64,000 nt of DNA, taken from an uncultured Solirubrobacteraceae bacterium (GTDB lineage: Bacteria; Actinomycetota; Thermoleophilia; Solirubrobacterales; Solirubrobacteraceae). Positions within the stretch are counted from its first letter, which is position 1; each line of letters starts with the position of its first letter. The stretch covers positions 2,482 to 66,481 of the forward strand of contig CAVXHC010000016.1 in NCBI GenBank assembly GCA_963761355.1, written 5' to 3'. The notes beneath the pieces are model-generated. The model saw nothing but the letters and a program-made list of their open reading frames with translations. It ran no database searches and was not told the origin of the DNA. Below are positions 26,760 through 58,731 of the stretch, piece after piece. The translations under genes and the position numbers were made by a program.

Positions 26760-26775
26760 CGTGCGGTGAAGTATC

Positions 26776-27000
26776 CAGGACCGCTTCGCGGCTAAAGCGA
26801 GCGTCCGCGCTCAGCCGAGCAGACGCCCCCTTCGGACGACCTACGAGCGTCTCGCCGGGCGCTGCCGAGACTGCTCCTTAGCCATGGCGAAGCAGGCGTC
26901 TAGGGGTCGTCGGCCAGCACTGTCGCGAATCGTCCCAAGCGAGCGTCGGCGCGGTCCCTGCTCGGACGCTTGCTCGTCCCGCGAAAGCAGTAGCGCGGGT
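26776..27000. repeat. array of palindromic repeat sites
   Basis: cgcttcgcggctaaagcgagcgtc; ttagccatggcgaagcaggcgtc; tcgtcccaagcgagcgtc; cccgcgaaagcagtagc. Confidence 0.8.
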
Positions 27001-27288
27001 CTTTTGCGTGAAGTCTTTGCGTCGGTGAGTGCCGTACCTACCGGGCGACGATGAGCGCGTCAATTGCGCTTACCGCGACAGTAAGAGTAGTCATCGGTTT
27101 GCACGCCCCGCTGTTCTCGTGCGCAAGTATGGAACGAAGCGCAGGGCGCGCTTGCGCGCCAGCCGCAGTGTGGCAGGTCTGCCCGGTGCATGCCTGGAAT
27201 TCATCGAGTACCGGCACGACGGGCCCGTGCGTCCCACGGGCCCGCCTTCAGGTCGGTGTCCCAGCGTTGCCGCGTCCTTTAGAAGCGG

Positions 27289-28311
27289 CTACGCGCTAGC
27301 GAACTCGCGCTCCGAGGCATCGATGACACCAGCCCGGTTCTTGTGTGAACACTCGTAGGAGCGCACGCGCTTGGCACGCTCCTCGTCGCCCTCATCGAGC
27401 ACAGAGCGGATCTCGTCCACGCTGAGCTCGTCATATCCCGGCCAAGGCTCGTCGCCGCGCAGGCTGGTGATCCGGCTGAGAATGGTCTTTCGGTTTTCGT
27501 TCTTTCGCTCGTAGGAGTCGATCTTCGCGAGGTCGACCTGCGAGAGATGTGTGAGCTTTTCGACAATCTCCGCAGCGGTGAGCTTCCTGTAACCGGTGAT
27601 TGCCAGGTCGCCTTCACTGGCCAGCACGCCCTTGACCTGACCCTCGGCCTGCGCCACCCCGGGTACCTTGCGTGCTTTGCGGGCGGTACGTTTTGCGCTC
27701 GATGTCGCGTCACGAGCAGTCTCCTTCACGCTCTCCGACGCCGAGCGGGCCGCGTCGGCAGCACCTGTCTTGCTGATGTCGTATGAAGGGTTCCCGCGGA
27801 TCTCCGAGCGCACCATGGCCTCGGTCAGCTTTGGGATCTCCCTCAAGATTCGGTCGAGCATCTTCTGCTCATCGGCCCGGATGGAGTCGGCGAGGGCCCG
27901 TGTGACCTTGTCGCCGACGGAGCTCGCCAGACGCTCGATCGCGGTGTAGGTGGCGATCTCCAACGCCTCGGTCGCACACGCGTCCTTGGCGTTCTTGAGG
28001 ACTTTCTCCTCTCCTCCCGTGCCGCGGAGGAGGTCGAGTGGTGTCTTCCCCAGGGCCAGTCCCTGCCCGACGACGCTCTGGACGAGCCCAACGCCGGCTT
28101 GTATCGGGCTGGTCCCCTGTCCGAGCTCGTCTAGACGGCGCTGCACGCGAGTCGCGTGCTCGCGCGTCTCGCGCAGGTGGGATTCGAGACCGTCGAGATA
28201 GCTCCCGCCCGGGGTCATCGCAATCTGCGACTGCAGCACGGTGACGAGTGACTGCTCCATAGCGTACGCCTCACTCAGGTACTGCACGATCTTCTGTTCA
28301 GCCTTGTCCAT
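27289..28311 (-). CDS. DUF892 ferritin-like protein with two C-terminal helical repeats
   Basis: YLSEAYAMEQ...HLRETREHA...EALEIATY...DEQKM; tail repeats GY(RK/DE)L...ERK/ECS..NR. Confidence 0.85.
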   Translation of the reverse strand: MDKAEQKIVQYLSEAYAMEQSLVTVLQSQIAMTPGGSYLDGLESHLRETREHATRVQRRLDELGQGTSPIQAGVGLVQSVVGQGLALGKTPLDLLRGTGGEEKVLKNAKDACATEALEIATYTAIERLASSVGDKVTRALADSIRADEQKMLDRILREIPKLTEAMVRSEIRGNPSYDISKTGAADAARSASESVKETARDATSSAKRTARKARKVPGVAQAEGQVKGVLASEGDLAITGYRKLTAAEIVEKLTHLSQVDLAKIDSYERKNENRKTILSRITSLRGDEPWPGYDELSVDEIRSVLDEGDEERAKRVRSYECSHKNRAGVIDASEREFASA

Positions 28312-28370
28312 TGGTCTCCAGCTTTCTGTAGTCAGTGTGTAGTGACGTGCACACGTGCACGAGCGCTCGG

Positions 28371-28769
28371 TCAGTCAGTGCGCTCATTGATCGCCAGCGC
28401 CTCGTCGTGGCCGCTGTCGCTCGCATCCGGGTCGATCGCACGCGCCTGCGCGTGCTGATCGCGGGCAGACTCAGTCAGATGCTCAGCCTCAACCGCCCGT
28501 CGCTCCGCGGCCGCACGTCCCTGCCTCGCCTGAGCGGCGCGTTCCTCGGCCTCAGCCTCAGCACGCTTGGCTTCGGCGGCCTGCTCATCGGCCGAGGCGC
28601 GCGCGGATTCGGCTTGGATCGAATGGCTTCTGGCCTGCTGGCGAAGCTCGCCCGCCTGCTCACGACGACGTTCGTCACGCCTGCGGCTCGCGGCGCGAGC
28701 GACGAGGGCGATGAGCAGTAGCACCACCACGGCGCCAACAGCAATTGCGATGATCGTTCCGGTGTTCAC
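28371..28769 (-). CDS. hypothetical protein, single N-terminal TM and Ala/Glu/Arg coiled coil
   Basis: MNTGTIIAIAVGAVVVLLLIALV; AAGGAGG RBS upstream. Confidence 0.75.
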   Translation of the reverse strand: MNTGTIIAIAVGAVVVLLLIALVARAASRRRDERRREQAGELRQQARSHSIQAESARASADEQAAEAKRAEAEAEERAAQARQGRAAAERRAVEAEHLTESARDQHAQARAIDPDASDSGHDEALAINERTD

Positions 28770-28779
28770 GGTTTCCTCC

Positions 28780-28959
28780 TTAGCTAGCTTTTGTTTGGGT
28801 TCCGCGCGCCCCTGTGGCCGAGGCGAAGACGTCTAGCCGGGGCAGCCGCGCCGTGCGTCCTGGTGCCGCTGGAGCTTGGTGCCGCGGCGTCCGCGGCGTC
28901 TGAAGCCCGCCACCCGCAAGCACCAGGGTGAGGACGATGACGAGAAGGATCGTGAGCAT
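28780..28959 (-). CDS. small membrane peptide, 3' part possibly degenerate
   Basis: GGAGG RBS; MLTILLVIVLTLVLAGGG. Confidence 0.35.
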   Translation of the reverse strand: MLTILLVIVLTLVLAGGGLQTPRTPRHQAPAAPGRTARLPRLDVFASATGARGTQTKAS

Positions 28960-28999
28960 GTTCACCTCCAAACGCTCGATCGACTCGGCGAGCTGACGG

Positions 29000-29176: not shown

Positions 29177-29329
29177 AGGCCCTCCTGGTTTGAGTTGTTG
29201 CCGGGCAGGCCGCCGCGATGAGCGCAGCTGAGTAGCCACCACGATCAGTGCGCCGACGGGCGGATAGATGACGGCTTCGGCGACGGCCCTCCCCCTGCGG
29301 CGCAGCCCGCAGGGGGAGTCACTACGACG

Positions 29330-29536
29330 CTAGAGGCGCCGTTCTTCGTATGGTCCGCCCACTACTCGCCGTCGAGCGGTGGCCGTATTGAACAGCGACA
29401 GCACCACACCGACGATGCCGGCGATGATGAGGATCAGGCCGATCGTTGGCCGCGACACGCCCGACACGTGAAATGTGACGGCATAGCGGATGATCGCGCC
29501 GACAGCGATGAGGAAAATCGATGTTCCGAGGGTCAT
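29330..29536 (-). CDS. small membrane protein (DUF6458-like)
   Basis: MTLGTSIFLIAVGAIIRYAV...GLILIIAGIVG. Confidence 0.75.
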   Translation of the reverse strand: MTLGTSIFLIAVGAIIRYAVTFHVSGVSRPTIGLILIIAGIVGVVLSLFNTATARRRVVGGPYEERRL

Positions 29537-29538
29537 AG

Positions 29539-29694
29539 CTAGACCCGCCCGCCTCTGCGATAGCCGAATCCGCCGCCCGTGAAGAAGACCACGAGGGCTA
29601 CCACCAGGAGCAGCCAAAGCAACGGGCTTACGCCGATCCCGCCCGCGACGGCTGCGATTACTAGGACAATCAAAAGCAGCTCTATGAGCCCCAT
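29539..29694 (-). CDS. 51-aa membrane peptide (not in the ORF track)
   Basis: AAGGAGG RBS; MGLIELLLIVLVIAAVAGGIGVSPLLWLLLVVALVVFFTGGGFGYRRGGRV; stop 2 nt from the next ATG. Confidence 0.75.
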   Translation of the reverse strand: MGLIELLLIVLVIAAVAGGIGVSPLLWLLLVVALVVFFTGGGFGYRRGGRV

Positions 29695-29766
29695 AGGACC
29701 CTCCTTTCCGTTGAATGCTCCTCGGCAAAACCGTTCAAGCGAGGAGAGAGAACACTCTTTCTACCA

Positions 29767-29786
29767 TAGAGAGAGCGCTCTTTCTA
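29767..29786. promoter_or_regulatory. palindromic operator candidate for the TetR regulator
   Basis: TAGAGAGAGC/GCTCTTTCTA (9/10) in the divergent promoter region. Confidence 0.55.
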
Positions 29787-29804
29787 GTGCTACCCTCCTA
29801 AGGC

Positions 29805-30748: not shown

Positions 30749-30907
30749 CCATAGCTCGCGCTCGTGGCATGCGAGAGTTCAGAACTGGCGGAGTCGGGCA
30801 CCCACCGCCGCTCAGGACGGACGGCCCAGTGTGTTGGGCCCTAAACGACACGCCTGCTAGCTGAGCATCGCGACAGCCGACCAGCCCCAAGGCCGGGCTT
30901 GCGCTCA

Positions 30908-31010
30908 GGACGAGCCGCGAGCGTCTCGTCAGGCACTCGCGAGGCGCCTGCCTTACGATGGCGAAAGCAGTAGCCGGTGGCGCGGACGCGCCGACTGCTG
31001 TTGGTCGTCC
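30908..31010. repeat. 103-bp dispersed repeat, copy 1
   Basis: 99/103 identical to 46818-46920. Confidence 0.95.
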
Positions 31011-31067
31011 GAAGCGACGGCACGAGGTGAGACCCCCCGGATGCTCGGTCAGCTAGGGAAGCAGGCG

Positions 31068-32416: not shown

Positions 32417-32513
32417 CCGCCGGCGAGTAGCGAGCCCTCAGCCCAACACCTGCCGCTGCTGCTTTCGGACGGCTGCAAGCTTCTCCAACTCCACCTGGCA
32501 GGCTCTCGCTCCC

Positions 32514-32615
32514 GGACGAGCCGCGAGCGTCTCGCCCGGCACTCGCGAGACGTCTGCTTCGCCGTGGCGAAAGCAGTAGCCGGTGGCGCGCAGGCGCGGA
32601 CTGTGTTGGTCATCC
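32514..32615. repeat. 103-bp dispersed repeat, copy 2
   Basis: About 90% identical to the other two copies; central ctgcttcgccgtggcgaaagcag. Confidence 0.9.
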
Positions 32616-32775
32616 GCAGCTAGCGTCAGCGAGGACTAAGTTCAGACGCTCGCTCAGCCGCGAGAGCCGGCGCGGCGCGGCGCCTCCGCTTGGCGAATTG
32701 CTAGACGGTTGCCGTCGACGAGGCGGGCTCATTTTGGTCCTCGCGCGGCGCGTGGCAGTCGACGAGAGCCCATGG

Positions 32776-34577: not shown

Positions 34578-34679
34578 CGCCCCCGGACGATAACGAGCGT
34601 ACCCAGGTCTAACGACGGCCGCCATGCGAGCGGAGTTCTCCCTTGCACCGAAAGCGAGCGCCTCGATCGTCGAGCCCCG

Positions 34680-34865
34680 CGCTGTCGCTTGGGACGACAA
34701 ACGCTCGTCCGAGCACCGACTCTCGAGACTACTGCTTCGCCATGGGCTGAGCGAGCGTCTCGCGCGTCGCGGAGCGGACGCGCGAGTTTCGTCCCAAGCG
34801 ACAGCACTGAGCCAAGCTCGGCGCGCGCTCGCTCGCCCGCCGAAAGCAGCAGTCCTGGATACTCC
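34680..34865. repeat. array of palindromic repeat sites ending at the SnoaL promoter
   Basis: ctgtcgcttgggacgac; ctactgcttcgccatgggctgagcgagcgtctcg; tcgtcccaagcgacagc; cgaaagcagcagtcctgGATACT. Confidence 0.8.
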
Positions 34866-34870: not shown

Positions 34871-35293
34871 GTGTCTGAGGAGTCCACGACCCCCGACCTG
34901 GTCGAGCTTTCCTATCGACGATTCGAGGCCATAAACAGACGGGACCTGGAGGCGGTGGTGAGCTTCTTCGCCGCTGACGCCATCTGGGACATGTCGCCAG
35001 TCGACATGGGCATCGTCGAGGGCCGCGGCGCAATACGCAATGCGCTCAAAACCTGGTGGGAGATGTTCCCAGGGATCGTGTCTGAGCTTGACGAGGTTCT
35101 CGACCTCGGCAACGGCGTTGTGCTCCAGGTTGTCACCCAGCGAGGTCACCCGGCCGGCAGCTCGGGCGAACTTCGCCAGCGTTCTGGCCGCGTTTCCATC
35201 GTGGTCGATGGCCTGATCGAGGCCCTGACGTCCTACAACGACATCGACGAGGCCCGCGCTGCTGCCGAACGCCTCGCCGAGTCGAGGGGGTAA
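34871..35293 (+). CDS. SnoaL-like NTF2 protein, type A (MSEESTTPDLVEL...ERLAESRG)
   Basis: FEAINRRDLEAV..FAADAIWD; GATACT 7 nt before the start. Confidence 0.88.
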   Translation: MSEESTTPDLVELSYRRFEAINRRDLEAVVSFFAADAIWDMSPVDMGIVEGRGAIRNALKTWWEMFPGIVSELDEVLDLGNGVVLQVVTQRGHPAGSSGELRQRSGRVSIVVDGLIEALTSYNDIDEARAAAERLAESRG

Positions 35294-35388
35294 GCGTTGT
35301 CGGAGGAGAGCTCATGACGCCCTGGACGTCACCCGCGACGGATGAAATGGGCGAGACTTGGCCCGCGAACCGAGGAGGATGAGCGCTT

Positions 35389-35781
35389 ATTTCTAAGCAG
35401 AACGTGGAGATCGTGCGCCAAGCGTGGGAAGCCTTTGCGCGCCACGACAATGAGTCGGCCCTGCGCCTCTACGACCCCGAGGTTGAGATACATGTCGGGT
35501 TCCTCGGCGGCGAGGTCTACCGCGGTCTTGCGGGTGTCCGAGATTTCTTTCGTGACTGGTTGGCGGTCTGGGACGAGTACGGATCGACGGTGGAGGAGTG
35601 GATCGACGCCGGGGATGATGTGGTAGCGGTGATACGTATATGGGGTCGCGGAAGAGCGAGCGGGGTCGGGGTCGAGGAACGTCAATCGCATGTCTGGACC
35701 TTGCGGGACGGCAGGCTCTGGCAGTTGCAGCGCTATGAGACGAAAGCTGACGCGCTCAAAGCCGTGGGGCTGACGGAGTAG
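35389..35781 (+). CDS. SnoaL-like NTF2 protein, type B (ATT at the homologous start; GTG 35404 is an alternative)
   Basis: (I)SKQNVEIVRQAWEAF...ALKAVGLTE. Confidence 0.82.
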   Translation: MSKQNVEIVRQAWEAFARHDNESALRLYDPEVEIHVGFLGGEVYRGLAGVRDFFRDWLAVWDEYGSTVEEWIDAGDDVVAVIRIWGRGRASGVGVEERQSHVWTLRDGRLWQLQRYETKADALKAVGLTE

Positions 35782-35784
35782 GCG

Positions 35785-36189
35785 ATGTCGCAGGCGAACG
35801 TGGAGATCGCGAAGCGCGTGATCGACGCTTTCAACGGGCGGGATGTCGATTCCATCTTCAAGTGCGTGAACTCGGATATCGAATGGTTCCCTGCGCTTCC
35901 CGGAGTCGTGGAGGGCGACGGCTACCGTGGCCGCGAGGGCATTGAAATGTACTTCGAGGAAATCTCGAACACGTGGGAGGAGTACAGCGTGGTGGGGCAG
36001 GACTTTCGCGATCTCGGCAACGACCGAGTTCTTGTTCTCAGCCGGGTAAAGGGACGTGGTAGAGGCAGTGGCGTCCAGGTCGATTCGCCGATTGGTGTCA
36101 TCTATGACTTTCGCGACGGCAAGATGTCGCGCGTCCGCGCCTATCTCAATCACGGCGAGGCGTTGCGGGCGGCGGGCGTCTCCGACTAG
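35785..36189 (+). CDS. SnoaL-like NTF2 protein, type B
   Basis: MSQANVEIAKRVIDAFN...EALRAAGVSD. Confidence 0.88.
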   Translation: MSQANVEIAKRVIDAFNGRDVDSIFKCVNSDIEWFPALPGVVEGDGYRGREGIEMYFEEISNTWEEYSVVGQDFRDLGNDRVLVLSRVKGRGRGSGVQVDSPIGVIYDFRDGKMSRVRAYLNHGEALRAAGVSD

Positions 36190-36230: not shown

Positions 36231-36279
36231 ACACGGTGCTTCCTCGTGATGCGAGCGCGACGTCGCACGCGGTCCCGGC

Positions 36280-36450
36280 TCCTGGTCTGGACGACGACCG
36301 CTCGTCCGTGCTCCGACGCACGAGACGCTCGCTTAGCTCCCGCGACAGCCGTCTGAGCTCGGGCGGTATGAGCCGTCGAGCGTCGTCCCGAGCGCACGCG
36401 TGACGTAAAGGCGCTGAGAGACTCGCAGTGCTCGGGAAGCAGGCGTGAGA
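36280..36450. repeat. array of palindromic repeat sites
   Basis: ggacgacgaccgctcgtccgtgctccgacgcacgagacgctcgcttagc (cf. 52420-52475); cgggaagcaggcgt. Confidence 0.7.
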
Positions 36451-37978: not shown

Positions 37979-38404
37979 CTACCCCCGTTCCTTGGCGAGG
38001 CGTTCGGCGGCGACACGGGCCTGGTCGATGTCGAGGTAGGTCGTAACCCGCTCGACCAGGATCCCCCGCCACAGGTAGACGAGTGCCTGCCGAGATTGAA
38101 CGTGACCGGCACTGCCAACGGGGCGGGCGTTCTGGCGCGCGACGGCAAGGGCAACTCCGCTACCAAGGTCCTGAGCCTGCTCCACAGCGAGCTCAAGCTT
38201 TTCATAAGCGTCGACCCACTCCTGCCACAAGCCACGCATGGCTGCATGATTCTCGAAGGTGCCCAAGCCCAAGGGCGAGAAGTCCCAGACGGCATCGGGA
38301 GCGAAGTGGCTCAGGATCGCATCCCAGTCGCCACGCTCAGCAGACGCCCAGAAACCGCGCACGAGCTCGACCAGGTCGGGGGTAGTGGACTCCTCGCACA
38401 TCAC
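37979..38404 (-). CDS. SnoaL-like NTF2 protein, type A
   Basis: MMCEESTTPDLVEL...AAERLAKERG; GATACT 7 nt before the start. Confidence 0.88.
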   Translation of the reverse strand: MMCEESTTPDLVELVRGFWASAERGDWDAILSHFAPDAVWDFSPLGLGTFENHAAMRGLWQEWVDAYEKLELAVEQAQDLGSGVALAVARQNARPVGSAGHVQSRQALVYLWRGILVERVTTYLDIDQARVAAERLAKERG

Positions 38405-38438
38405 GCAGTGGAGTATCCCGGACCGCTGCTTTCGCGGC

Positions 38439-40024
38439 GAGGCTGTTTCGTAAACATTCGCGCGTCCGTCAGCGCGGGCGTTCGCGGTGGGTTTCGCGCT
38501 CTGAGGGGCGTGGTGGTCTTGGCAGCGGTGAGACAGATGGGCCCGACCGGGCGTTCCCGGGCCCCTTTCAGGCCCCGGCGGTCGCTATTTGGCGGCTGTG
38601 GAGCTTCAGCAGATTGTGCGTAGCGGTGATTAGTCGCCATTCCGACCTGGCGGCGGCTCTGCCACGGCGTTGGAAGCGATCCATCCGGCGGTTGAACTTC
38701 GTATGTCCGAACACCGGCTCGATCATCGCCTGGCGTTTTCGGTAGAGCGCGTGTCCGAGCTCGGTGGAGAGCACTCGTCGCATGTGTGCGTAGGCGCCGC
38801 CATCCCACCCTGGACGGGTGCCCTTGCGGTGGCCGGCGTCGGGCGGGATCAGTACCTGGATCCCACGGTCGATGGCGTTCTCCATTTGCTCCCTGTGCCA
38901 GTAGCCGGCGTCGGCGAGCAGCACCCCCGGCGTCTCTGTGACACCCGCCGCCTGAAGCTCGCTCTGGGTCGCGTCGAGCATCGGCTGCAGATGCCCGAAA
39001 TCTGGTGAGTCGACCGTGACCTCGGCGGCGATCACGACCTGGTTCTCGTTGACGGCGGCTTGGGCGTTGTAGCCCTGAACGTAGCCGCGCGCGACCTTCA
39101 ACATGCGCGAGTCCGGGTCAGTCAGGTTGATCTTCCCCGCGGGAGTCTCGGGTGGTGAGTAGGGGGTTGGTGAGGCCCCGAGGCGGCGACCTCTGCTGTC
39201 CCGTGCATGCACGCGGTAGTGCTCGTAGGCGGCGTTCGCGCGGGACTCCGCCCACAGCTCCTCCTGCAGACGGCGCTTGGCCTCTTTCAAGCGAGCCGGG
39301 CGAGAACGCGGGATCGGCTTGGCTTCCTTGGCGCGTTCCTCATCGAGCTGGCGTTTGGCCTCGCGCAGCCAGCCGCGACGGCCCTGGCTGGTCGAGAGAT
39401 GCTCCGGCAGCTCATCGCCGCGCTTATCGCCATAGAGCTCGTCCTCGGCTGCGTCGACTTCGGCGGCCTCTTTGAGGATCTCCCGCGCGATCTGATCGAA
39501 GTCCGCGTTCTGCTCGCGGCTCGCGTTGGCGTGGACCTTGGTGCCGTCGACGGCGATCGTGCCGACCTTGACCATCCCCGCTCGCGCGCACAGCGTGAGC
39601 ACGCTGGTAAAGAGTCCGGCCAGAGCGTCTGAGTGCTCTGAACGAAAGCGATTGATCGTCACGTGATCGGGCGCGAGGTTCGACGCGATCACCCGGTAGG
39701 CGACGTCCTCCAGGCACGCGCGCTCGATACCTCGCGATGAGCGCTGTCCCTTCGCATAGGCGTAGAGCACGATCGCGACCATCATCGCCGGGTCATAGGC
39801 CGCGCGACCCCAACCGTCCTCGCGATATCGCGCGTAGAACGGCGACAGATCCATGTCCTTGACCGCGTCGATCACAAACCACGCCAGATGGTTCTCCGGC
39901 AGCCACTCGCGCAGCGAGGGCGACATCAACAACAACTGCTCACGATCACATTCGATGAAGTTCTGGGGCATCCCAGAAGTGCTTAACGACACCGGACAGA
40001 CCGGGGGGTTTGCGAAACAGCCTC
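38439..40024 (-). mobile_element. IS1182-family insertion sequence, 1586 bp
   Basis: 17-bp IRs GAGGCTGTTTCG(T/C)AAAC; 5-bp TSD GCGGC at 38434-38438 and 40025-40029. Confidence 0.9.
38568..39971 (-). CDS. IS1182 transposase
   Basis: GRAAYDPAMM...PDHVTINRFR...IAVDGTK...TDPDSR...GYNAQ...LADAGY...YRKRQAMIEPVFG. Confidence 0.93.
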   Translation of the reverse strand: MPQNFIECDREQLLLMSPSLREWLPENHLAWFVIDAVKDMDLSPFYARYREDGWGRAAYDPAMMVAIVLYAYAKGQRSSRGIERACLEDVAYRVIASNLAPDHVTINRFRSEHSDALAGLFTSVLTLCARAGMVKVGTIAVDGTKVHANASREQNADFDQIAREILKEAAEVDAAEDELYGDKRGDELPEHLSTSQGRRGWLREAKRQLDEERAKEAKPIPRSRPARLKEAKRRLQEELWAESRANAAYEHYRVHARDSRGRRLGASPTPYSPPETPAGKINLTDPDSRMLKVARGYVQGYNAQAAVNENQVVIAAEVTVDSPDFGHLQPMLDATQSELQAAGVTETPGVLLADAGYWHREQMENAIDRGIQVLIPPDAGHRKGTRPGWDGGAYAHMRRVLSTELGHALYRKRQAMIEPVFGHTKFNRRMDRFQRRGRAAARSEWRLITATHNLLKLHSRQIATAGA

Positions 40025-40162
40025 GCGGCTAAAGCGAGCGCCCGGCCAGCCCGGGGTCAGCGCTTGGAACGACGAGCACTCGTCAGGACTGCCTCTGCGG
40101 ACGCTTCTGCTTTCCACGGGAGCTGGCGTCCTTTCCACTCCGTCATTGAGCAAGCGGAGAAA

Positions 40163-40332: not shown

Positions 40333-40388
40333 ACTCGTAATGAAGGGGTCCGGGGTTCGAGTCCCCGCGTCGGCTCTGGAAAGGCCCA
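40333..40388 (+). other. 3' half of tRNA-Thr(CGT) plus 13 bp; attR of island 2
   Basis: Identical to 22529-22584. Confidence 0.93.
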
Positions 40389-40394: not shown

Positions 40395-40441
40395 TTGCCA
40401 TGGTAGGGAAGAGGCCGCCGGTTCGAGTCCGGCGCTGGGCT
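40395..40441 (+). other. 3' fragment of a tRNA-Thr(GGT)-like gene; relic att site
   Basis: ATGGTAG-GGAAG-AGGCC-GCCGG-TTCGAGT-CCGGC-GCTGGGC-T; no 5' half upstream. Confidence 0.7.
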
Positions 40442-41447: not shown

Positions 41448-41855
41448 CTAGACGGGCGCCAGCAGCCGAGCGACAGCGTTCTCGATCGCCACGAGCAGCG
41501 TCCACGTCGAGTTCGCATGGCCGATGTGCTCGCCGAGCGGGATTGTGGCAGCATCCTCGACCAGCTCGGTGAGCGCTGACTCCATCCGTTCAACCAGGCA
41601 GTCGCGAATTGCATCGGTGATTCCGAGCGGCACGTCCGCGACCGGCGGATCTCCGCTCAGCGCATTCGTCAGGTCCCATGCTTCGCGGACCCGCTCGCGG
41701 GACCGCGCCAGGTCGAACTCCCCCGGGCCGCCGTGCCTTCGGTCAGCGGCGTACTTCGCGTTCCACTCATGATCGCGTATCACCGCCGCGGAGTAGACGA
41801 GCGCCCCCACCTGCTCGGGATCAACCGCCAGTCTCACTGTGGCTAGGCTGCGCAT
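41448..41855 (-). CDS. hypothetical protein
   Basis: 135-aa ORF with plausible composition. Confidence 0.45.
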   Translation of the reverse strand: MRSLATVRLAVDPEQVGALVYSAAVIRDHEWNAKYAADRRHGGPGEFDLARSRERVREAWDLTNALSGDPPVADVPLGITDAIRDCLVERMESALTELVEDAATIPLGEHIGHANSTWTLLVAIENAVARLLAPV

Positions 41856-41892
41856 TGTGAGCGCCTCTTCCAGTGGGTTTTGCTTACTGACG

Positions 41893-44399: not shown

Positions 44400-44570
44400 G
44401 GCGCGAGCGTCACGGCAGGCACCTACCGAGGTCCACCGCGCGTACTCCTCCCGAGGCGCTGACGCAGCGTCAGAGGGCTGGCCGGTCGCTGTCGCTGTCG
44501 CTTGGCGCGCGCGTGGGCTCAAGGGACACGCTTGGGCGTCGTCCGCTGCGAAAGCGTCGAACATGTCGCT
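44400..44570. repeat. degenerate array of the same repeat modules
   Basis: gcgagcgtcacggcaggcac (cf. 103-bp repeat); ctgtcgcttgg; gtcgtccgctgcgaaagcg. Confidence 0.55.
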
Positions 44571-45324: not shown

Positions 45325-45729
45325 TCAGGTGCCGGTGTCCGGTGTGAGGGCGAGGTCGGCGAGGGCACGGTCGCGGTCTGTGTAGTTGGTGATCTTGGTG
45401 ACCTTGCCGTCGTGAATATCGAATACCTCAGCGCACCGTCTGGTCACCGGCACGCCGCTTTTCCTGCCGCGCCCGCTCCATCGCGTCAGCAACAGAACAC
45501 GGTCGCCGTCGAACTCCGTGTACTCGTCCACCTCGGCGGAGAAGTCGACGATATCGCTGAAGAGGTTGCGCATAGCTTCCGCGAGCCCCACGAGGCCCGT
45601 GTAGGTGCGCGGCTCAAGCGCGTCGACGACGGCGTACTCGATCTCGGGGTCGGCCCACTCGGCCTTGCTGTAGTCGCCGTGTTCGATGGGCTCCTAGATT
45701 GAGCGCACTAGGTCCAAGTTCGAGGACAC
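45325..45729 (-). pseudogene. SnoaL-like type-C gene with an in-frame amber at codon 12
   Basis: VSSNLDLVRSI*EPIEHGD...LADLALTPDTGT; TAG at 45694-45696; GATAAT 7 nt before the GTG. Confidence 0.8.
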
Positions 45730-45872
45730 GGGAGGGATTATCGCCCACCCGTAGCCGTCCACGGCGGGGCGTGCCGAGAGTGGTGCTTTCGCCCAGAAGC
45801 GAGCGTCTCCGCCGGAGTCGCTGAGGCTGCTGGTCCGGATGAGCCGCGGGCGTCTCGCCCAGCTGAGCGCGC

Positions 45873-46738: not shown

Positions 46739-46817
46739 GCCGAGCCGGCACGCGGCTTCACTTGCGCTCGCCTGTGGATGCGAGCGCCACGGCGGACAAC
46801 ACTCAGACTCCTGGACC

Positions 46818-46920
46818 GGACGAGCCGCGAGCGTCTCGTCAGGCACTCGCGAGGCGCCTGCTTCGCCATGGCGAAAGCAGTAGCCGGTGGCGCGGACGCG
46901 CCGACTGCTGTTGGTCGTCC
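46818..46920. repeat. 103-bp dispersed repeat, copy 3 (outside island 2)
   Basis: Central hairpin CTGCT-TCGCCATGGCGA-A-AGCAG. Confidence 0.95.
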
Positions 46921-46996
46921 ATTCCGATCGTCTCGCGAGCCCCATGGGGACGGCTCCTTCCACGGGAAGGCGAGAGTCCTGCCGTCCGCGCAAGCC

Positions 46997-52367: not shown

Positions 52368-52492
52368 CGCTGCTGCTTTGCGAGACATCCAAGCGTCCCC
52401 GCTGCGACCGGGCTCACGCTCGCTTGGGACGACGAGCACTCATTCGTGCTCCGACACGCGAGACGCTCGCTTCGCCCCGTCCTGGATACTTC
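52368..52492. repeat. array of repeat sites ending at the SnoaL promoter
   Basis: gctgctgctttgcg; cgctcgcttgggacgacgagcactc; cgagacgctcgcttcgc; gtcctgGATACT. Confidence 0.75.
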
Positions 52493-52498
52493 GCCGCA

Positions 52499-52917
52499 TG
52501 ATGTCCGAGGAGTCCAGGACCCCCGATCCGGTTGAGCTTGTGGGCAGGGCGTTTGAGGCTGCGAATCGCGGCGATCTCGACGCGGTGGCCAGCAGCTTCG
52601 CCGAAGATGCGACCTTCGACGGGAGGGGCGTTGGGGGACCCTTCGAGGGACGGGCGGCCATTCGCAGCATGCTTGAGGAGTGGTTTGCCACGTACGAGGA
52701 GTTGGAGTTCGGGCTTGAGGAAGTCCGCGACCTCGGCAATGGCGTTGTGTTCTCCGTGGTCGTTCAGAACGGTCGTCCGGCTGGCAGCGCCGGTCACCTT
52801 CGGCAACGCGAGGGATGGGTCGTCGTCTGCGTACGGGGCTTGATCGCACGCCTTACGACCTCCGAGGTGGATGACGCCCGTGCTGCCGGCGAACGCCTCG
52901 CGCAGGAACGGGGGTAG
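52499..52917 (+). CDS. SnoaL-like NTF2 protein, type A
   Basis: MMSEESRTPDPVEL...AGERLAQERG. Confidence 0.88.
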
Positions 52918-52920
52918 GCG

Positions 52921-53439
52921 ATGCCGCAGGAGAACGCGAGATTGGTTCAGCGCGCGATCGGGGCGATCAACGCGAGGGACATCGAGGGCTATCTCGCCTG
53001 CTGCACCGAGAACGTCAAGTTGGAGACGCCATTAGCCGCCGTTGGAGGGGTGTACGGAGGAATCGACGGCATCAGGCGTTTCTTTACGGACATCGAGGAA
53101 GCCGCACCCGATTTCCGGATCGAGCTTGACGGCGTCGAGGAGGTCGATAGCAAGCGCGTGATCGCGTTCATGCGCACTGGCTCCACGGGCCGCGCCAGCG
53201 GCATTCGCATGGCAGCGCCTACCCAGACCAACGTGTACGACCTGATCGACGGCAAGATCAGTCACGTTCGCATCTTCTTCGACCGTCAGGAGGCCCTCAA
53301 CGCCGCGGGCCTGGAGGAGCAACGGCTTGGAGTATCGATCAGTCGAGGTCGAAGGCGGCCCGGACGGCATTGGCGAGGGCTGTCTCTTGAGGGTCGAGCA
53401 GGATGCCGATCTGTGCTCCCAAAGCGCTCGCGGGGATAG
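52921..53439 (+). CDS. SnoaL-like NTF2 protein, type B; usual stop after AAGLEE lost
   Basis: MPQENARLV...DRQEALNAAGLEE, then read-through antisense into mazF. Confidence 0.8.
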   Translation: MPQENARLVQRAIGAINARDIEGYLACCTENVKLETPLAAVGGVYGGIDGIRRFFTDIEEAAPDFRIELDGVEEVDSKRVIAFMRTGSTGRASGIRMAAPTQTNVYDLIDGKISHVRIFFDRQEALNAAGLEEQRLGVSISRGRRRPGRHWRGLSLEGRAGCRSVLPKRSRG

Positions 53440-53638
53440 TGGTGATGTTGTCGCAGCTCACGACGGAGGGTCCATCAAGACCGTTGGTCGCGTCCAGCGC
53501 TACCTCGGTCGAAAGCCCACGGATCGCCGTGGTGATTGGCGCAACGGTGACCGTCGCTAGATGTGGGCGCACGACGTCGCGTGTGAGGATCAGGACTGGG
53601 CGCGCCTTGTCGAGTTGGGCGACGTGGATCGGGCGCAT
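53339..53638 (-). CDS. mazF: MazF/PemK-family toxin
   Basis: AQLDKARPVLILTR...VTVAPIT...SVVSCDNITTI. Confidence 0.93.
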   Translation of the reverse strand: MRPIHVAQLDKARPVLILTRDVVRPHLATVTVAPITTAIRGLSTEVALDATNGLDGPSVVSCDNITTIPASALGAQIGILLDPQETALANAVRAAFDLD

Positions 53639-53871
53639 CAGGGGAGATCGACGGGCAGGCTGATCACGTGCTCGGCGAGTCCGGCGAGCTCAGGATCCTG
53701 ACCGGTGCTCGCAAGGATCGCGGCGTCGCGCTCGGCGACGATGCGCCGCCGTTCGCGCTCCAATGCCCGCGTGAGGACCGCCGCTCTGCTCCGCGCGGCG
53801 CCGGCGTGGACAACCTCGTCAACGAAGTCGACCAACTCATCCGGGAGACGGACTGCAATCTGCGTGCTCAT
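53638..53871 (-). CDS. mazE: ribbon-helix-helix MazE-type antitoxin
   Basis: MSTQIAVRLPDELV...SRAAVL.RAL; TGATG overlap with the toxin; TACCAT 6 nt before the ATG. Confidence 0.9.
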   Translation of the reverse strand: MSTQIAVRLPDELVDFVDEVVHAGAARSRAAVLTRALERERRRIVAERDAAILASTGQDPELAGLAEHVISLPVDLP

Positions 53872-53895
53872 ACCATAATGGTACCAGATTGGTAT
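53870..53895. promoter_or_regulatory. mazEF operator/promoter palindromes
   Basis: ATACCA...TGGTACCA...TGGTAT. Confidence 0.6.
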
Positions 53896-54003
53896 CAAGA
53901 GGCGCGAAGGTCGATGCCGCCCTGACCCCCGACCTGGGGGATCTTTCACGGCGCTCGGTAGGGAGGATCAATCGCGGCGATGTCGCCGCGCGCGGGCTCA
54001 GGC

Positions 54004-54303
54004 TCAGGCAGGTGCGCAGCGAGCGATGGTGATCTCCCAGTAGCCAACCGCGAGATCCACTACCCCAACAACCAGGAAGAAGGCCGTCCATCCGTACGCG
54101 GCGTACGAGAGTATGAATGCGCCAATGCCGGCCGCGACGATGCCACCGGCAACACGCAAGACCCCAAACACGCGGAGGTGGCGGTACTCCCATGGGATGA
54201 TCAGGCGTTGCAAGCCGGATCGAGGGGGAGACGCCCACCACTCGCGCAGATGTCTCGCGCCGCTGTTGCGCTTGGGTGCGTTCATCGGGGGCGTCCCGCT
54301 CAT
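54004..54303 (-). CDS. small membrane protein
   Basis: IIPWEYRHLRVFG followed by two TM helices; ATGA coupling to the upstream ORF. Confidence 0.7.
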   Translation of the reverse strand: MSGTPPMNAPKRNSGARHLREWWASPPRSGLQRLIIPWEYRHLRVFGVLRVAGGIVAAGIGAFILSYAAYGWTAFFLVVGVVDLAVGYWEITIARCAPA

Positions 54304-54467
54304 GCTCGCTTCAGGAACCTCAAACCGAACGCCGCGAACACCAGGACAATCCCGACGTTCACCATCAGGCGCTCCCAGAACCGATGCCTGAAGAACAAGA
54401 TGTCCACGCCGACCACGACGGCTACCAGCGCGAGCACGTAGAGCACGACGCCTGCCTGCTTTCCCAT
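54300..54467 (-). CDS. 55-aa two-TM protein (not in the ORF track)
   Basis: MGKQAGVVLYVLALVAVVVGVDILFFRHRFWERLMVNVGIVLVFAAFGLRFLKRA. Confidence 0.7.
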   Translation of the reverse strand: MGKQAGVVLYVLALVAVVVGVDILFFRHRFWERLMVNVGIVLVFAAFGLRFLKRA

Positions 54468-54509
54468 CGTTCCACCCTACCGCTCGAGGCTTCTCTCGGT
54501 TTCACACAT

Positions 54510-54734: not shown

Positions 54735-55127
54735 TTACCCTCGCTCCTCGGTGAGGCGTTCGGCGACTGCAAGGGCCTCGTCGATGTGGGTGTAGGTCGT
54801 GTTGCGCACGATCAAACCGTCGATCCATTCGACGACCGATGCGTAGCGAAGCTGAACGGAACCGTTGCTCCCGACGATATGCGCCTTCTGCAATATCACG
54901 GCAAACGTGAGGCCGTTGCCGAGATCACGAATCTCCTCGGCCTTCCGCTCAATGTCGGAGTATGAGCTGCGCCAGTCCTCGAAGACGCCCATCCCCCAGG
55001 GCGATGCGTCCCAGACAGCGTCGGGAGCATAGAAGCCGAGGGCTGCCTCGATGTCCTCGCCCGCCTCGATGCTTCTGCGTGTCAGCTCGACCAAGTCGGG
55101 GGTCGTGGACGCGGCAGACATCGTCAA
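54735..55127 (-). CDS. SnoaL-like NTF2 protein, type A (probable internal deletion)
   Basis: SAASTTPDLVEL...AERLTEERG; lacks the GRxAIRxx helix seen in paralogs. Confidence 0.8.
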   Translation of the reverse strand: MTMSAASTTPDLVELTRRSIEAGEDIEAALGFYAPDAVWDASPWGMGVFEDWRSSYSDIERKAEEIRDLGNGLTFAVILQKAHIVGSNGSVQLRYASVVEWIDGLIVRNTTYTHIDEALAVAERLTEERG

Positions 55128-55619: not shown

Positions 55620-55649
55620 CTGGTTTTCGCTCTCGAATGGATCTGTTGC

Positions 55650-55661: not shown

Positions 55662-55681
55662 TCGATGGTACTACTAGCGCC

Positions 55682-56536
55682 ATGATCAACGCCAGCAGCA
55701 CCAAAACTGATTTCGAGTTGCTTCGCTATACGGAGGACGGGCCGATCGCGCGGATAACGCTCGATCGCCCCGAGAAGAGAAACGCGCTCTCAATCGCGCT
55801 GAGCGACGAGCTGATCAGGGCGATCGACCGGGTCCAGGCCTCGACGGCTCTCAAGGTGCTCGTGATCCAGGGGGCTGGAGATACGTTCTGCGCCGGCGAC
55901 GACATCACTGAGATGTTCACATGGGGCGACGCCAACGGCGTCATGCGCCGCGCCCGCCTCTATCAGACCATGGCCAACGCGCTCGAGGAGCTTGACAAGG
56001 TCACCGTGGCGGCGGTCGACGGATTCGCTGTCGGCGGCGGACTTGAGATCACGATGACCTGCGACTTCGTCATCGCCACGCAACGCGCTCGCTGGGGGAT
56101 GCCGGAGGTCGACGTCGGCATCACGCCTGGCTGGGGCGGCACGACACGCCTGGCGCGGCTGATCGGCAGGCGCATGACCAAGGAGGTCAACCTCCTCGGC
56201 GCGCTACACCCGGCGGTCCGCGCGGTGCAGCTCGGACTCTGGAATCGAGTCGTTCCCGACGAGCAGTTGGATGCCGAGGTGGATGCGCTGGTCGAGGTCC
56301 TGCTCTCCAAGAACCAGCAGGCAGTGCGCCAGCTGAAGTTCATCATCAACCGCGGAGTCGAGGCGGATCTGTACACGGCACAGGGTTTCGAGGCACTCTC
56401 GGCCGGACTCACCGGAGCAGTCAGCGGCGGCTGGCACGTGCCCGACGCGGACCAAGGCGCCGGCGTGGTCGGCTTCACCGAGAAGGACTCGCTGTGGCAG
56501 ACACGCCGCGCGCTCGCCAGGGACTTTTGGGTTTAG
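55682..56536 (+). CDS. enoyl-CoA hydratase/isomerase family
   Basis: DRPEKRNAL, FCAGDDI, GFAVGGGLE, MPEV..GITPGWGG. Confidence 0.93.
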   Translation: MINASSTKTDFELLRYTEDGPIARITLDRPEKRNALSIALSDELIRAIDRVQASTALKVLVIQGAGDTFCAGDDITEMFTWGDANGVMRRARLYQTMANALEELDKVTVAAVDGFAVGGGLEITMTCDFVIATQRARWGMPEVDVGITPGWGGTTRLARLIGRRMTKEVNLLGALHPAVRAVQLGLWNRVVPDEQLDAEVDALVEVLLSKNQQAVRQLKFIINRGVEADLYTAQGFEALSAGLTGAVSGGWHVPDADQGAGVVGFTEKDSLWQTRRALARDFWV

Positions 56537-56588
56537 GGGCCGATCGCCAGAGCTCTCTCAGCGGATGAGTCAGTCGCTACAGGCCGTC

Positions 56589-57143
56589 TTACACGCGTCC
56601 GTAGCGAAGGTAGACGACGCGAGAGCCAAACGTGCGTGTCTCGATCAGCTCGAGGCGGATCTTGTTCTCCGAGCGAGGGAAGTAGGGCGTGCCGCCGCCG
56701 AGTAGGACAGGACTGACGAACAACCGCCACTCGTCGATCAGCCCGAGCTTCATACACGCGCCCGCCAGACCGGCGCCGCCGACCGCGATGTCCTTTCCGG
56801 GCTGCTCCTTGAGCCGGGAGACCTCCTCGCCGAGACCGTCCCTGGCCAGGGTGGTGTTACCGACCACGCTCTCCAGCGTCGTGGAGAACACGACCTTCGG
56901 CAGGGCCTTCCAGATTTGGGCGAACCTGACCTGCTCCGCGGCAAGCGGACTCTCCTCAGCGGTCTCCCAGTAGACCATCGCTTCGTACAGCCGCCGTCCA
57001 CAGAGATGCACGCCGGTCTCCTGTACCTGCTCGGTGTGGAACACAAACAGTTCCTCGTCGGGCACCGTCCAGTCGATCGCGCGATCGGGTCCGGCGATGT
57101 AGCCGTCCAGCGACACGGTCATCGAGTAGATCAGCTTGCGCAT
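56589..57143 (-). CDS. dihydrofolate reductase-like (RibD C-terminal) protein
   Basis: YSMTVSLDGYIAG...GRRLY...GGAGLA...LIDE. Confidence 0.9.
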   Translation of the reverse strand: MRKLIYSMTVSLDGYIAGPDRAIDWTVPDEELFVFHTEQVQETGVHLCGRRLYEAMVYWETAEESPLAAEQVRFAQIWKALPKVVFSTTLESVVGNTTLARDGLGEEVSRLKEQPGKDIAVGGAGLAGACMKLGLIDEWRLFVSPVLLGGGTPYFPRSENKIRLELIETRTFGSRVVYLRYGRV

Positions 57144-57178
57144 CAAGACCTCGTTCGTCGTTGCTCTCACGCAGCAAC

Positions 57179-57616
57179 CTACGGTCGTTCGACGAGCGCT
57201 TTGAAGTTGTGGAGAGCTTCTTCGAGACTCTTGGCGTTCAAGCGCTTAACGATGAGCGCGTCAGCGATCCTGCCGAACACGCCGCCCCGCAGCGCGTAAT
57301 CGAACGTCGTGGTGAGGCGTGTTCCATCGCCTTCCGGGGTGAGCTCCCAGCGAGCTCGCCCCGACATCATGCCGTCCATTTGGAGAAGCTGCAGCTTGCC
57401 CGGCTGGTACTCGAGAACCGTCTCAGTGATCGGCAGGGATATGCCCGCCGACTTCACCTTGAAGACCACCTTGCCTCCCTCGTCGGGGAAGGGAGCGGCG
57501 ATGTCGATCTCAGTCATGCCCGGATACCAGTCCGGCCAGCGACTGGCATCGCTCAAGAGCGCCATGGTCTCCAGCGGCGAGGCCTTGATCTGGACATTGC
57601 CTTGGACGATCGCCAT
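57179..57616 (-). CDS. SRPBCC/polyketide cyclase-like protein
   Basis: IKASP...WPDWYPG...WELTPEGDGTRLT...YAL. Confidence 0.85.
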   Translation of the reverse strand: MAIVQGNVQIKASPLETMALLSDASRWPDWYPGMTEIDIAAPFPDEGGKVVFKVKSAGISLPITETVLEYQPGKLQLLQMDGMMSGRARWELTPEGDGTRLTTTFDYALRGGVFGRIADALIVKRLNAKSLEEALHNFKALVERP

Positions 57617-57769
57617 CGTGTATCTCCCCGCTCTCGTTGTGTGTCGTTGTGCCTCCGCGACGCGGCTGCGGGAATGGGCTGTGGCCGAACCGGATAGATC
57701 CAGCGTCAAGCCGCCACGCTCCCCCGAGCCGGCGAGGCTCGCACCGTTTCTTCTCCAGTTGTCTGCGGC

Positions 57770-58294
57770 TCAGCCGCCGCTGTCGCGACCACGGCGTTGC
57801 GCCGTCACGATCGAGAAGCCGGCACCCATCAGGAGTAGGCCGATGCCGACCGTCCAGCGGAGGTCCAGGCCCGTGAACGGCAGCGTGGTCGCTTTTGTGG
57901 CCGGCGTGGTGGCGGTAGGGGTGGTCGAGGTAGTGCTGGTTTTCGCAGGCGCGGTTGTGCTCGTCGACTTCGGCTTGCTGCTTTCTTTCGACGGCAACGT
58001 GCCGGTTGCGGGTGTCGGCGTCGTTGCGGCAGGCGTCGTTGCGGCAGGCGTCGTTGCCGCCGGCGTCGTCGTCGTGGTCGTGGTCGTCGTGGTCGGCGTG
58101 TTCGGCGTCTGGCCATAGCCCGCCGTACCTTCGGCGGCGAGAGCTGCCGTGGGCATCACGAGCGCCATCGTCAGGGCCAGAACGGCCGACACCGACAAGA
58201 TCAAGCTGCCCATCGCGCTGGACGAGCCTCTCTTCATCGGCGCTGCGTCTGCTGTCTGGGGCCTACTCGAGGCCAAGACATCATTCCGAGTCAT
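57770..58294 (-). CDS. Thr/Pro/Ala-rich LPxTG cell-wall-anchored protein
   Basis: Signal peptide; TTPAA repeats; LPFTG followed by a TM helix and RRGR; start may be 58237. Confidence 0.8.
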   Translation of the reverse strand: MTRNDVLASSRPQTADAAPMKRGSSSAMGSLILSVSAVLALTMALVMPTAALAAEGTAGYGQTPNTPTTTTTTTTTTPAATTPAATTPAATTPTPATGTLPSKESSKPKSTSTTAPAKTSTTSTTPTATTPATKATTLPFTGLDLRWTVGIGLLLMGAGFSIVTAQRRGRDSGG

Positions 58295-58731
58295 GCCAAC
58301 CTCCCTTGATGATGTGGTGATCGCTTCAGTCCTCGCTTAGAAGCCTGCGTGACAGCATCGTACAGAGCAGCCGAGGGCAGCCGTGCGCCGAGCCTACCCG
58401 TCTCCTCAGGGCTTAGACCGACTTTCCGCGAAAGACTACGAGCAACCACGCCGTAGGGCTACTGAATCGAGACGTTTTGGCGCCTTCGCGAGACGGCCTC
58501 ATAGGACTCGTCGAGCGGCTCGAGCAGGGACGCTCTGGACCACGGTCACGCGCACCGTCGGCTCGCGACATCCAGAGCCGAGGAGAGGCAGCCAGGCGCG
58601 GCCGCAATCACCGCAGCGTGACAGGACTGACACCAAGCGACGGTCAAGCTACGGGCGCAGTCGGTCGATGAACGCCTAAAGCTGCGCAAAGCGAAAGCAG
58701 GATCAGCAGGCATGAATCGCGTGAGCCGTCG

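Follow-up and report, generated by a model that had tools for sequence, protein, structure and literature searches.

A low-copy family of mosaic palindromic repeats, resembling REP/BIME elements, in island DNA of an uncultured Solirubrobacteraceae genus

Repetitive extragenic palindromes (REPs) that carry the tag CGTC form head-to-head heterodimers and have no dedicated transposase, and REP dimers can sit inside longer palindromes (Di Nocera et al. 2013, PMC3733652). The CGTC superfamily follows rules of its own, namely the CGTC tag, a stem of 8-9 bp, a loop of 4-5 nt and A/T at the first stem positions (PMC3733652). This work and that of Nunvar et al. 2010 (PMC2817692) were our sources for comparison with REPs and bacterial interspersed mosaic elements (BIMEs). 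Here we analyzed a window of 64,000 nt (C16:2482-66481) from the genome of an uncultured Solirubrobacteraceae bacterium (G000; 4.03 Mb, 21 contigs, ~68% G+C), where arrays of palindromic repeats lie between accessory genes, together with relatives of the same genus (G005, G014, G036 and G060 are named below). A sequence-only reading of the window had listed ten intergenic stretches as built from short palindromic sites, and had taken these for a new family, either of recombination sites or of BIME-like elements, by which accessory genes are assembled. Repeat finding and nhmmer searches confirmed that the ten stretches are made from one modular palindromic repeat family. On balance, the arrays probably consist of members of a non-coding, mosaic family of palindromic repeats that is specific to one lineage and is of the REP/BIME kind. 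The BIME-like half of the earlier proposal gained support; the recombination-site half, in which the sites assemble cassettes, did not.

Mapping of motifs over all copies gave the following order: CTGCTTTCG, ~10 nt, AAGCGAGCG(T/C)C, ~38 nt, GGACGA and the core, continuing on the right with TCGTCC, 7 nt, AAGCGA, CGCTCGCTT, 17 nt, AAGCAG, 13 nt and GGATAC(T), with CGCTCGCTT followed by CGAAAGCAG as the right-hand outer motifs. The core is 100-103 nt long and is built from two ~50-nt arms that meet head to head at CCATGG, each arm having the form GGACGA-N~27-GAGAC-NN-CTGCTTCGCC. In 11 of 11 seed copies, the ends GGACGA and TCGTCC are invariant and the centre (GAGAC-NN-CTGCTTCGCCATGGCGAAGCAG-NN-GTCTC) is conserved, while the arms vary; this central site is a near-perfect 22-bp palindrome that is kept across arm types and species. 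Further units are a hairpin, AAGCGAGCG..CGCTCGCTT, and a short palindrome, CTGCTTTCG..CGAAAGCAG, the latter being the site described in the sequence-only reading. Terminal inverted repeats are therefore present at two levels (GGACGA...TCGTCC, and outer CTGCTTTCG...CGAAAGCAG), and cores are usually nested within the larger outer palindrome. As had been pointed out before, the GTT/AAC signature of attC is absent, since the elements end in GGACGA/TCGTCC or in CTGCTTTCG/CGAAAGCAG. A separate palindromic motif, GTGGCCTGTGCC...GGCACGGGCCAC, recurs just outside several elements in G000 (C2:216600-216630, C1:23630-23665, C14:16055-16085 and C14:426590-426610) and may be one more unit type of the mosaic.

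Several elements adjoin genes of a SnoaL subgroup, SnoaL-A (N-terminus M-x-EESTTPDLVEL), in which a GGATACT box stands 6-10 nt ahead of the start codon. Judged from its sequence and position, this box is the predicted -10 box of a leaderless SnoaL-A mRNA. It also precedes SnoaL-A genes without an element, indicating that it belongs to the gene and not to the element. The junction AAGCAGCAGTCCTGGATACT, which had been reported at the start of two SnoaL genes, was located at 34844-34863 and, as its reverse complement, at 38413-38432; its shortened forms (26771 and 52479) and the CTGCTTTCG at 32457 were likewise present.

We examined enrichment of the short site against first-order Markov resamples of the window with a mismatch-tolerant scan. 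Taken literally, the pattern (CTGCTT/TCGCTT)N7-11(AAGCAG/AAGCGA) has only two exact matches (32554 and 46858), yet even these are an enrichment over the 0.08 expected. With two matches only, the exact expression was dropped as a site definition in favor of the tolerant scan. When up to one mismatch was allowed, 13 sites were observed against 2.75 +/- 2.0 expected, 10 of them in the listed intergenic stretches; with up to two mismatches the numbers were 80 and 47, and 18 of the 80 fall in 1.6 kb of element DNA, which makes up 2.5% of the window. The spacing between sites had been given as 45-60 bp. We measured 93-97 bp instead (26781/26874 and 34639/34732/34829), with the GGACGA/TCGTCC motifs about midway between successive palindromic sites.

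To describe the modularity of the family, 64 distinct cores from G000, its relatives and public metagenome-assembled genomes (MAGs) were halved at the centre, and the halves were clustered into arm types. Arm types of ~50 nt recur in several species and in differing pairings (B-C six times, A-B three times, D-F three times and E-G twice), and type A is found with B, H, K, L, M, N and Y as well as with four unclustered arms. Arms also occur singly, as at 52427-52478. Half-cores ending near CCATGG had been considered broken palindromes; this interpretation was dropped, as the arm analysis shows the single arm to be the basic unit. The B-C core at 30908-31010 is 96% identical to that at 46818-46920 over exactly 103 nt and 84-90% identical to that at 32514-32615, the identity beginning at GGACGA and ending at TCGTCC, whereas flanks and neighboring genes are unrelated. 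G014 has two copies of this core, oppositely oriented, and OY969935 has one, again with different flanks. No direct repeat that could be a target-site duplication flanks any of 11 G000 cores or 3 foreign B-C cores; the flanks of these 14 are inverted complements or unrelated. In addition, the 34.7 kb element is 86% identical to an element at C16:131k, while the SnoaL-A proteins next to them are only ~42% identical. Between G000 contig C1 and G036, 89 of 100 columns are identical across the SnoaL-A N-terminus, the predicted -10 box and the outer arm; this stretch contains a 45-nt identical run (-10 box, CTGCTTTCG and AAGCGAGCG) in an alignment that averages 73% as a whole.

Six full cores lie within the window. 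The repeats listed at 26.8, 30.9, 32.5, 34.7, 36.3, 38.4/40.0, 45.8, 46.8 and 52.4 kb were recovered, while the one at 44.4 kb is merely a degenerate remnant (44470..44560; GTCGCTTGG, TCGTCC and GCGAAAGCG), recognized by inspection only. The full composite element at 26771..26990 comprises a palindromic site M (26781-26800), a core (26834-26935) with its central site at 26874-26895, a hairpin AAGCGAGCG..GACGCTTGCT and CGAAAGCAG at about 26975, and it carries a reversed putative -10 box (AGTATCC) for a minus-strand SnoaL-A stub. On the plus strand, a B-C type core of 103 nt with weak outer arms (30897..31027, core 30908-31010) sits between the 3' ends of an open reading frame (ORF) on the TetR side and a limonene-epoxide-hydrolase-like (LEH) gene. 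Another plus-strand B-C element (32454..32667; CTGCTTTCG at 32457, core 32514-32615, GACGCTCGCT at ~32645) separates a methyltransferase fragment from an alpha/beta hydrolase gene. At 34639..34863 lies a long, almost perfect palindrome that contains M sites (34639, 34732 and 34829) and a D-F core (34692-34794). The gene that diverges to its left encodes a dienelactone hydrolase; on its right, 7 nt separate GGATACT (34857-34863) from the GTG start codon of SnoaL-A (34871). A plus-strand element whose core has an A-type arm (36240..36399, core 36289-36388) is placed between convergent SnoaL-C and P450 genes. Upstream of the minus-strand SnoaL-A gene at 37979-38404, the promoter-proximal end of an element (38405..38438) is parted by an insertion sequence (IS) from its other half (40025..40125; GCTAAAGCGAGCG, a GGAACGA arm and an CTGCTTTCC centre), which adjoins the end of a genomic island. 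Farther right, all on the plus strand, are an outer arm (GTGCTTTCG, AAGCGAGCGTC) with only the first ~29 nt of a B arm (45775..45865), a B-C core with the left outer arm only (46775..46935, core 46818-46920) between convergent genes, and a partial element (52370..52490) made of CTGCTTTGCG, a hairpin CCAAGCG..CGCTCGCTTGG and the single A-type arm 52427-52478, the arm being fused directly to GTCCTGGATACT and the SnoaL-A promoter (gene 52498-52917). Gene stubs had been said to end near sites; they are not generally cut there.

The copies differ in folding. That at 34.7 kb forms a near-perfect hairpin of ~130 nt (34670-34815; -84.6/-92.7 kcal/mol, z -7.5/-7.0), whereas other cores give three-way junctions or weak folds. 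A single consensus hairpin for the core was tried and rejected, as RNAalifold returned -7.6 kcal/mol with a covariation term of +0.16, that is, no covariation signal. One could still regard the 103-nt core as a structured RNA, i.e., a small RNA, a terminator or an mRNA-stabilizing 3' hairpin acting after transcription, because its length and ends are conserved, some copies fold strongly, several lie downstream of genes (30.9, 36.3 and 46.8 kb), and REPs are known to act in this manner (PMC3733652). However, besides the weak consensus fold, 47 core folds had a median z-score of -1.5 with 30% below -2, copies stand in both orientations relative to flanking genes, and there is no U tract. Rfam 15 gave no match to an element at the gathering score, nor at E<=1 over 26500-53000. 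We therefore regard an RNA function as the least probable of the explanations weighed here.

The distribution of the family is narrow and clustered. A first nhmmer model made from three B-C copies found 6 loci in G000, and a broader 8-copy model found 20. Of the 20 core loci, 18 have a SnoaL-like gene within 5 kb (random expectation 9%) and 8 have one within 500 nt (random expectation 1.8%); 19 are no more than 50 kb from a contig end (random expectation 34%). The matches are thus not evenly spread; an even spread among core genes was among the outcomes that the sequence-only reading had named as speaking against it. A covariance model of the core found clustered copies in 19 of 61 genomes of the genus, with 0 to ~16 loci in each relative. 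Specifically, G036:C14:23-89 kb holds ~12 copies, some just 1.1-1.5 kb apart, interspersed with genes for a flavodoxin-like reductase, a SnoaL pair, and MTHFR-like, nitronate monooxygenase and DsrE-like proteins, and three copies lie in G014:C2:117-122 kb. When 185,579 species genomes were searched with a pattern of 26 specified bases, 17 stretches matched, of which 14 are labeled Solirubrobacteraceae, 2 "Actinobacteria bacterium" and 1 is a 4.8-kb contig binned as Gemmatimonadetes; the earlier guess of a host range in Thermoleophilia fits this almost exclusive occurrence in Solirubrobacteraceae MAGs.

The SnoaL_2/NTF2-like family itself is greatly expanded in G000 (4 Mb), where no fewer than 53 loci, often in a tandem A-B-C arrangement, were counted; those in the window are at 24758-25207, 34871-36189, 37979-38404, 45325-45591, 52498-53439, 54735-55127 and 60590-61300. 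Among about 20 copies of SnoaL-A, identity is 75-93% over the first ~40 nt and the last 70-100 nt of the gene and ~65-70% in the gene body, and the conserved 3' block contains a stop/start junction, GGGGGTAGGCGATG. SnoaL-A is patchy in the genus (20 of 61 genomes, a few of which have 15-23 copies). Given this expansion, the proximity of 8 of the 20 cores to SnoaL-like genes, and the single conserved block formed by outer arm, promoter and N-terminal codons, the repeats might be a passive by-product, that is, upstream regions of SnoaL-A paralogues copied along with the family, some made palindromic by inverted duplication, and without an identity of their own. On the other hand, B-C cores adjoin unrelated genes, arms are shuffled independently of flanks, and G005 and G060 have cores and no SnoaL-A at E<=1e-15, so that we hold this explanation to be very improbable.

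The main alternative to a REP/BIME-like family is that the repeats are cis-regulatory operators. Quasi-palindromes of 20-23 bp (CTGCTT-N-AAGCAG) would bind a dimeric regulator and, ~94 bp apart on one helix face, control divergent leaderless SnoaL-A operons and their neighbors, the repeats having spread because the regulon was duplicated. The conservation of the central 22-bp palindrome across arm types and species, the 93-97 bp spacing, the fixed position of the outer site 13 nt upstream of GGATAC in five SnoaL-A promoters and the 45-nt run shared by G000 and G036 are all consistent with this. However, many cores are between convergent 3' ends or beside non-SnoaL genes (30.9, 32.5, 36.3 and 46.8 kb), SnoaL-A genes with the same -10 box exist without an element, and no candidate regulator is consistently linked. 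Furthermore, cores and SnoaL-A co-occur above chance in the 61 genomes and yet are separable (both in 10, cores only in 9, SnoaL-A only in 10, neither in 32; Fisher p = 0.04, Spearman 0.43). Operators are accordingly a possible, though unlikely, explanation.

ISs use the elements as targets. IS-A (DUF772 + DDE_Tnp_1) has 5 nearly identical copies with 5-bp target duplications, and three of the five insertions are in the CTGCTTTCG-AAGCGAGCG interval just upstream of SnoaL-A. Among the three is the copy that splits the 38.4/40.0 kb element (38439..40024, minus strand; transposase 38568-39992), which has terminal inverted repeats GAGGCTGTTTCG and a GCGGC duplication and has its insertion point in the element's CTGCTTTCGCG^GC hairpin; a metagenome contig from run X5, with the joint 38435->40028, represents the allele without it. 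IS-B, with ends GTGGGTGTCGCG, has one and the same insertion point, TCGTC^C, in G000 and G060, and in G000 it is accompanied by a CGTC duplication. In G014, a member of the IS110 family (L027, G014:C2, 12373-13527) lies exactly in the junction between SnoaL-A and the next SnoaL gene start, and both of its copies in G000 (C7:370019-370360 and C19:43449-43790) border SnoaL arrays; this element could be a site-specific IS whose target is the repeated SnoaL coding junction. We also considered the repeats as miniature inverted-repeat transposable elements (MITEs) derived from IS-A, and rejected this since the IS-A end resembles the CTGCTTTCG half-site too weakly for such a claim. An autonomous IS with the ends of the element was not found either, the ends of IS-A (GAGGCTGTTTCG) and IS-B (GTGGGTGTCGCG) both being different.

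A dedicated enzyme, either a tyrosine recombinase or a REP-associated tyrosine transposase (RAYT)/HUH transposase, had been suggested as a linked partner of the sites, and none was found. Specifically, the RAYT domain (Y1_Tnp, PF01797) had no match at E<=0.001 in six element-bearing genomes, while control genomes did match. Tyrosine integrases do occur 1.5-7 kb from clusters in G000, G014, G005 and G060. In G000, G014 and G060 they adjoin tRNA-Thr or tRNA-Leu genes like ordinary island integrases, the integrase and tRNA pairs being 2-7 kb from the element clusters in G000 and G014 and 1.5 kb in G060; in G005 the integrase is 6 kb from the cluster and no tRNA was found nearby.

These integrases bear on the cassette hypothesis of the sequence-only reading, which takes the repeats as structured, site-specific recombination sites analogous to attC or pdif, at which a recombinase builds cassette arrays in island DNA. 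Apart from the integrases near most clusters, several observations speak for it. In the arrays of G000 and G036, each intergenic gap holds a single element. Arms change partners around a conserved centre, and single arms terminate at or near that centre. ISs target the elements, as the IS1111 group targets attC. One metagenome contig matches 30054-30913 at 94% identity and departs from the window exactly at GGACGA (30913), and the right edge of a core, 32613, is where several others start; however, breakpoints of short-read contigs at repeat edges are expected of any repeat. Against the hypothesis, the neighboring integrases are at different tRNAs, R''/R' boxes are absent, and core orientation is not fixed relative to genes, as the two opposite B-C cores of G014 show. 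Inter-element intervals hold 1-4 genes on both strands, and arms do not travel with genes because the same B-C core lies between unrelated genes on both sides. As to the idea that strain-variable boundaries fall at the sites, in the one gene family tested, LEH, gain and loss boundaries ignore them: a search of 1.5 kb around the LEH orthologues of 11 relatives (57-71% identity) gave no core, even at E<=1, and the homology ends at the gene borders without an element and with no flanks in common. Gene-sized duplicates likewise exist without elements at their ends (53920-54489, 92%; 41449-41891, 89%; 29292-29717, 81%). We thus consider cassette assembly a doubtful explanation with a small chance of being correct, and it would be similarly surprising if the centre CTGCTTCGCCATGGCGAAGCAG and the GGACGA/TCGTCC ends were crossover points of a structure-specific recombinase that drives arm re-pairing and some exchange of gene modules. 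If such crossovers do take place, they would constitute an integron-independent, attC-like cassette exchange system in Actinomycetota, and recombination at the sites would be a new way of shuffling accessory genes in this phylum.

The reading as a REP/BIME-like family is supported because several hairpin unit types alternate in orientation as heterodimers that are re-paired across species, and because the elements lie between genes, are confined to one lineage and serve ISs as landing sites. Several points weigh against it. The copy number (~20 per genome, clustered) is far under that of classical REPs (>100, genome-wide), the units are longer than REPs, and no mobilizing enzyme was identified. 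The 45-nt run identical between two species would fit a selected protein-binding function as well, and so would the M-site spacing of 93-97 bp, which is about nine helical turns. The case for mobility rests on identical units in unrelated flanks, a pattern that gene conversion between pre-existing elements could also yield, and the two processes are indistinguishable because no pair of filled and empty alleles was found for any core. In this regard, LEH-orthologue flanks were not syntenic in any of three relatives examined and so gave no filled versus empty comparison, an empty-site pattern for the 46.8 kb core had no match in the JGI metagenomes, and exact-protein look-ups of SnoaL-A and LEH for strain-level contexts returned none on record. 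Note that metagenome runs were compared as short Logan contigs, whose joints are mostly paralogues or other organisms; no 103-nt skip was among these joints.

We infer a mode of spread and a local role for the family as follows. The units would form part of the accessory gene pool that genomic islands carry in one uncultured genus of Solirubrobacteraceae. They may be moved and re-paired by a trans-acting enzyme through hairpin-dependent transposition that leaves no target duplication, or they may spread and change partners by recombination and gene conversion at short conserved motifs. Locally, they could serve as intergenic punctuation, with strong hairpins between convergent genes, and in leaderless SnoaL-A operons they would supply the DNA immediately upstream of the predicted -10 box, where an effect on transcription is conceivable. 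They would also offer preferred landing sites to two IS families, IS-A and IS-B.

The surroundings of the arrays are those of a genomic island. The first 9 kb of the window is G+C-rich core DNA, and the remainder is lower in G+C. A tRNA-Thr gene (22499-22572, plus strand) forms one border of the island, a tyrosine integrase gene (22673-23875, plus strand) is next to it, and an exact 56-nt repeat of the tRNA-Thr 3' end (40333-40388) closes the island; as had been stated, elements are found both within and beyond these limits. A tRNA-Thr 5' fragment (9389-9437) is found upstream of the complete gene, at a distance of 13 kb, another tRNA-like fragment, of a 3' end (40403-40430), is just past attR, and two exact 41-nt direct repeats with 49 nt between them are at 21551-21640, which suggests that several islands are stacked at the tRNA-Thr locus. 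The genes at 24-57 kb encode small accessory enzymes and regulators, including many SnoaL_2/NTF2-like proteins, LEH, alpha/beta and dienelactone hydrolases, P450, TetR, HxlR, a two-component system and enoyl-CoA hydratase. Helix-turn-helix proteins with genes beside the arrays are TetR (29805), HxlR (55176) and a LuxR-type protein (51533). Toxin-antitoxin (TA) modules had been described as interspersed among the arrays; instead, two probable modules flank them, namely a DUF4160/DUF2442 pair (23875-24427) and a MazF/PemK toxin (53339-53638) with an upstream small ORF (whole module 53339-53949). Single-gene-sized patches at 53920-54489, 41449-41891, 29292-29717 and 52856-53323 are 81-92% identical to places on C10, C3 and C14, with homology that stops near gene borders, and accessory genes here seem to be copied one at a time without a visible site. 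In addition, the ORF at 25454-26626 contains three tandem 72-nt coding repeats (26197-26412; 67-71% identical to the reference copy) and matches collagen triple-helix repeats, and a similar collagen-like ORF adjoins an element cluster in G014 (L027:14521-16743). Two c-di-GMP-I-GGC riboswitch aptamers were detected on the minus strand at 63020-63094 and 63791-63866 (62.6 and 68.9 bits, above the Rfam gathering score).

A full-text literature search returned no paper on palindromic repeats in this lineage. The repeat family is real and apparently undescribed. It has no RAYT and few copies, is limited to island DNA, is linked with the SnoaL-A pool and forms a hot spot for ISs. The elements mark accessory DNA and assembly breakpoints in the abundant soil MAGs of Solirubrobacteraceae and, together with the neighboring junction between SnoaL genes, explain where three IS families have inserted. 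They also draw attention to a SnoaL/NTF2-like family that is unusually large, has conserved gene ends and may merit study itself.

Compared with known systems, the elements are closest to REPs and BIMEs, to which they would add an actinobacterial, RAYT-less, low-copy and island-restricted case. As in those systems, short intergenic hairpin units of several types alternate in orientation, homodimers and heterodimers are able to fold as one large stem-loop, dimers are embedded in longer palindromes, and ISs use them as targets. In contrast to REPs, the units are ~50 nt long rather than 20-40 nt, and the ~20 loci per genome are clustered in island DNA near one gene family and not distributed chromosome-wide; unlike in REPIN systems, RAYT is entirely absent. 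The CGTC REPs are similar in that the end TCGTCC contains CGTC and neither group has a dedicated transposase. The family would bear on the questions of the origin and mobilization of CGTC-type repeats. However, the units apparently depart from the rules on stem and loop that hold for CGTC families 1-4, the sole small hairpin of CGTC type being GGACGA-N7-TCGTCC in A-type arms, with a 6-bp stem, a 7-nt loop and no A/T start.

With MITEs such as the Neisseria Correia/NEMIS and ERIC/IRU elements, the repeats share a palindromic, intergenic form of 100-260 bp, terminal inverted repeats, occurrence in any gene-orientation context and copies that abut the promoters of neighbors. They differ from MITEs in having neither a target-site duplication nor an autonomous IS with matching ends, and from outward-promoter MITEs in that the predicted -10 box belongs to the SnoaL-A gene. 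Like integron attC sites, they are imperfect palindromes of ~60-140 nt with conserved ends and a variable middle that punctuate small accessory genes, with TA genes in the neighborhood and specialized ISs that target them; unlike attC sites, they lack RYYYAAC/GTTRRRY boxes and a common orientation with genes, the intervals hold multiple genes on both strands, no apparent integron-type integrase adjoins the array start, and elements are also scattered singly. Finally, the Xer-dependent pdif sites of Acinetobacter plasmids are likewise short palindromic sites in both orientations that flank small accessory modules, whereas by inspection the sites described here are GC-rich palindromes of the form 6-N7-11-6 within structures of 100-260 nt, as opposed to the 28-bp XerC-6-XerD arrangement.

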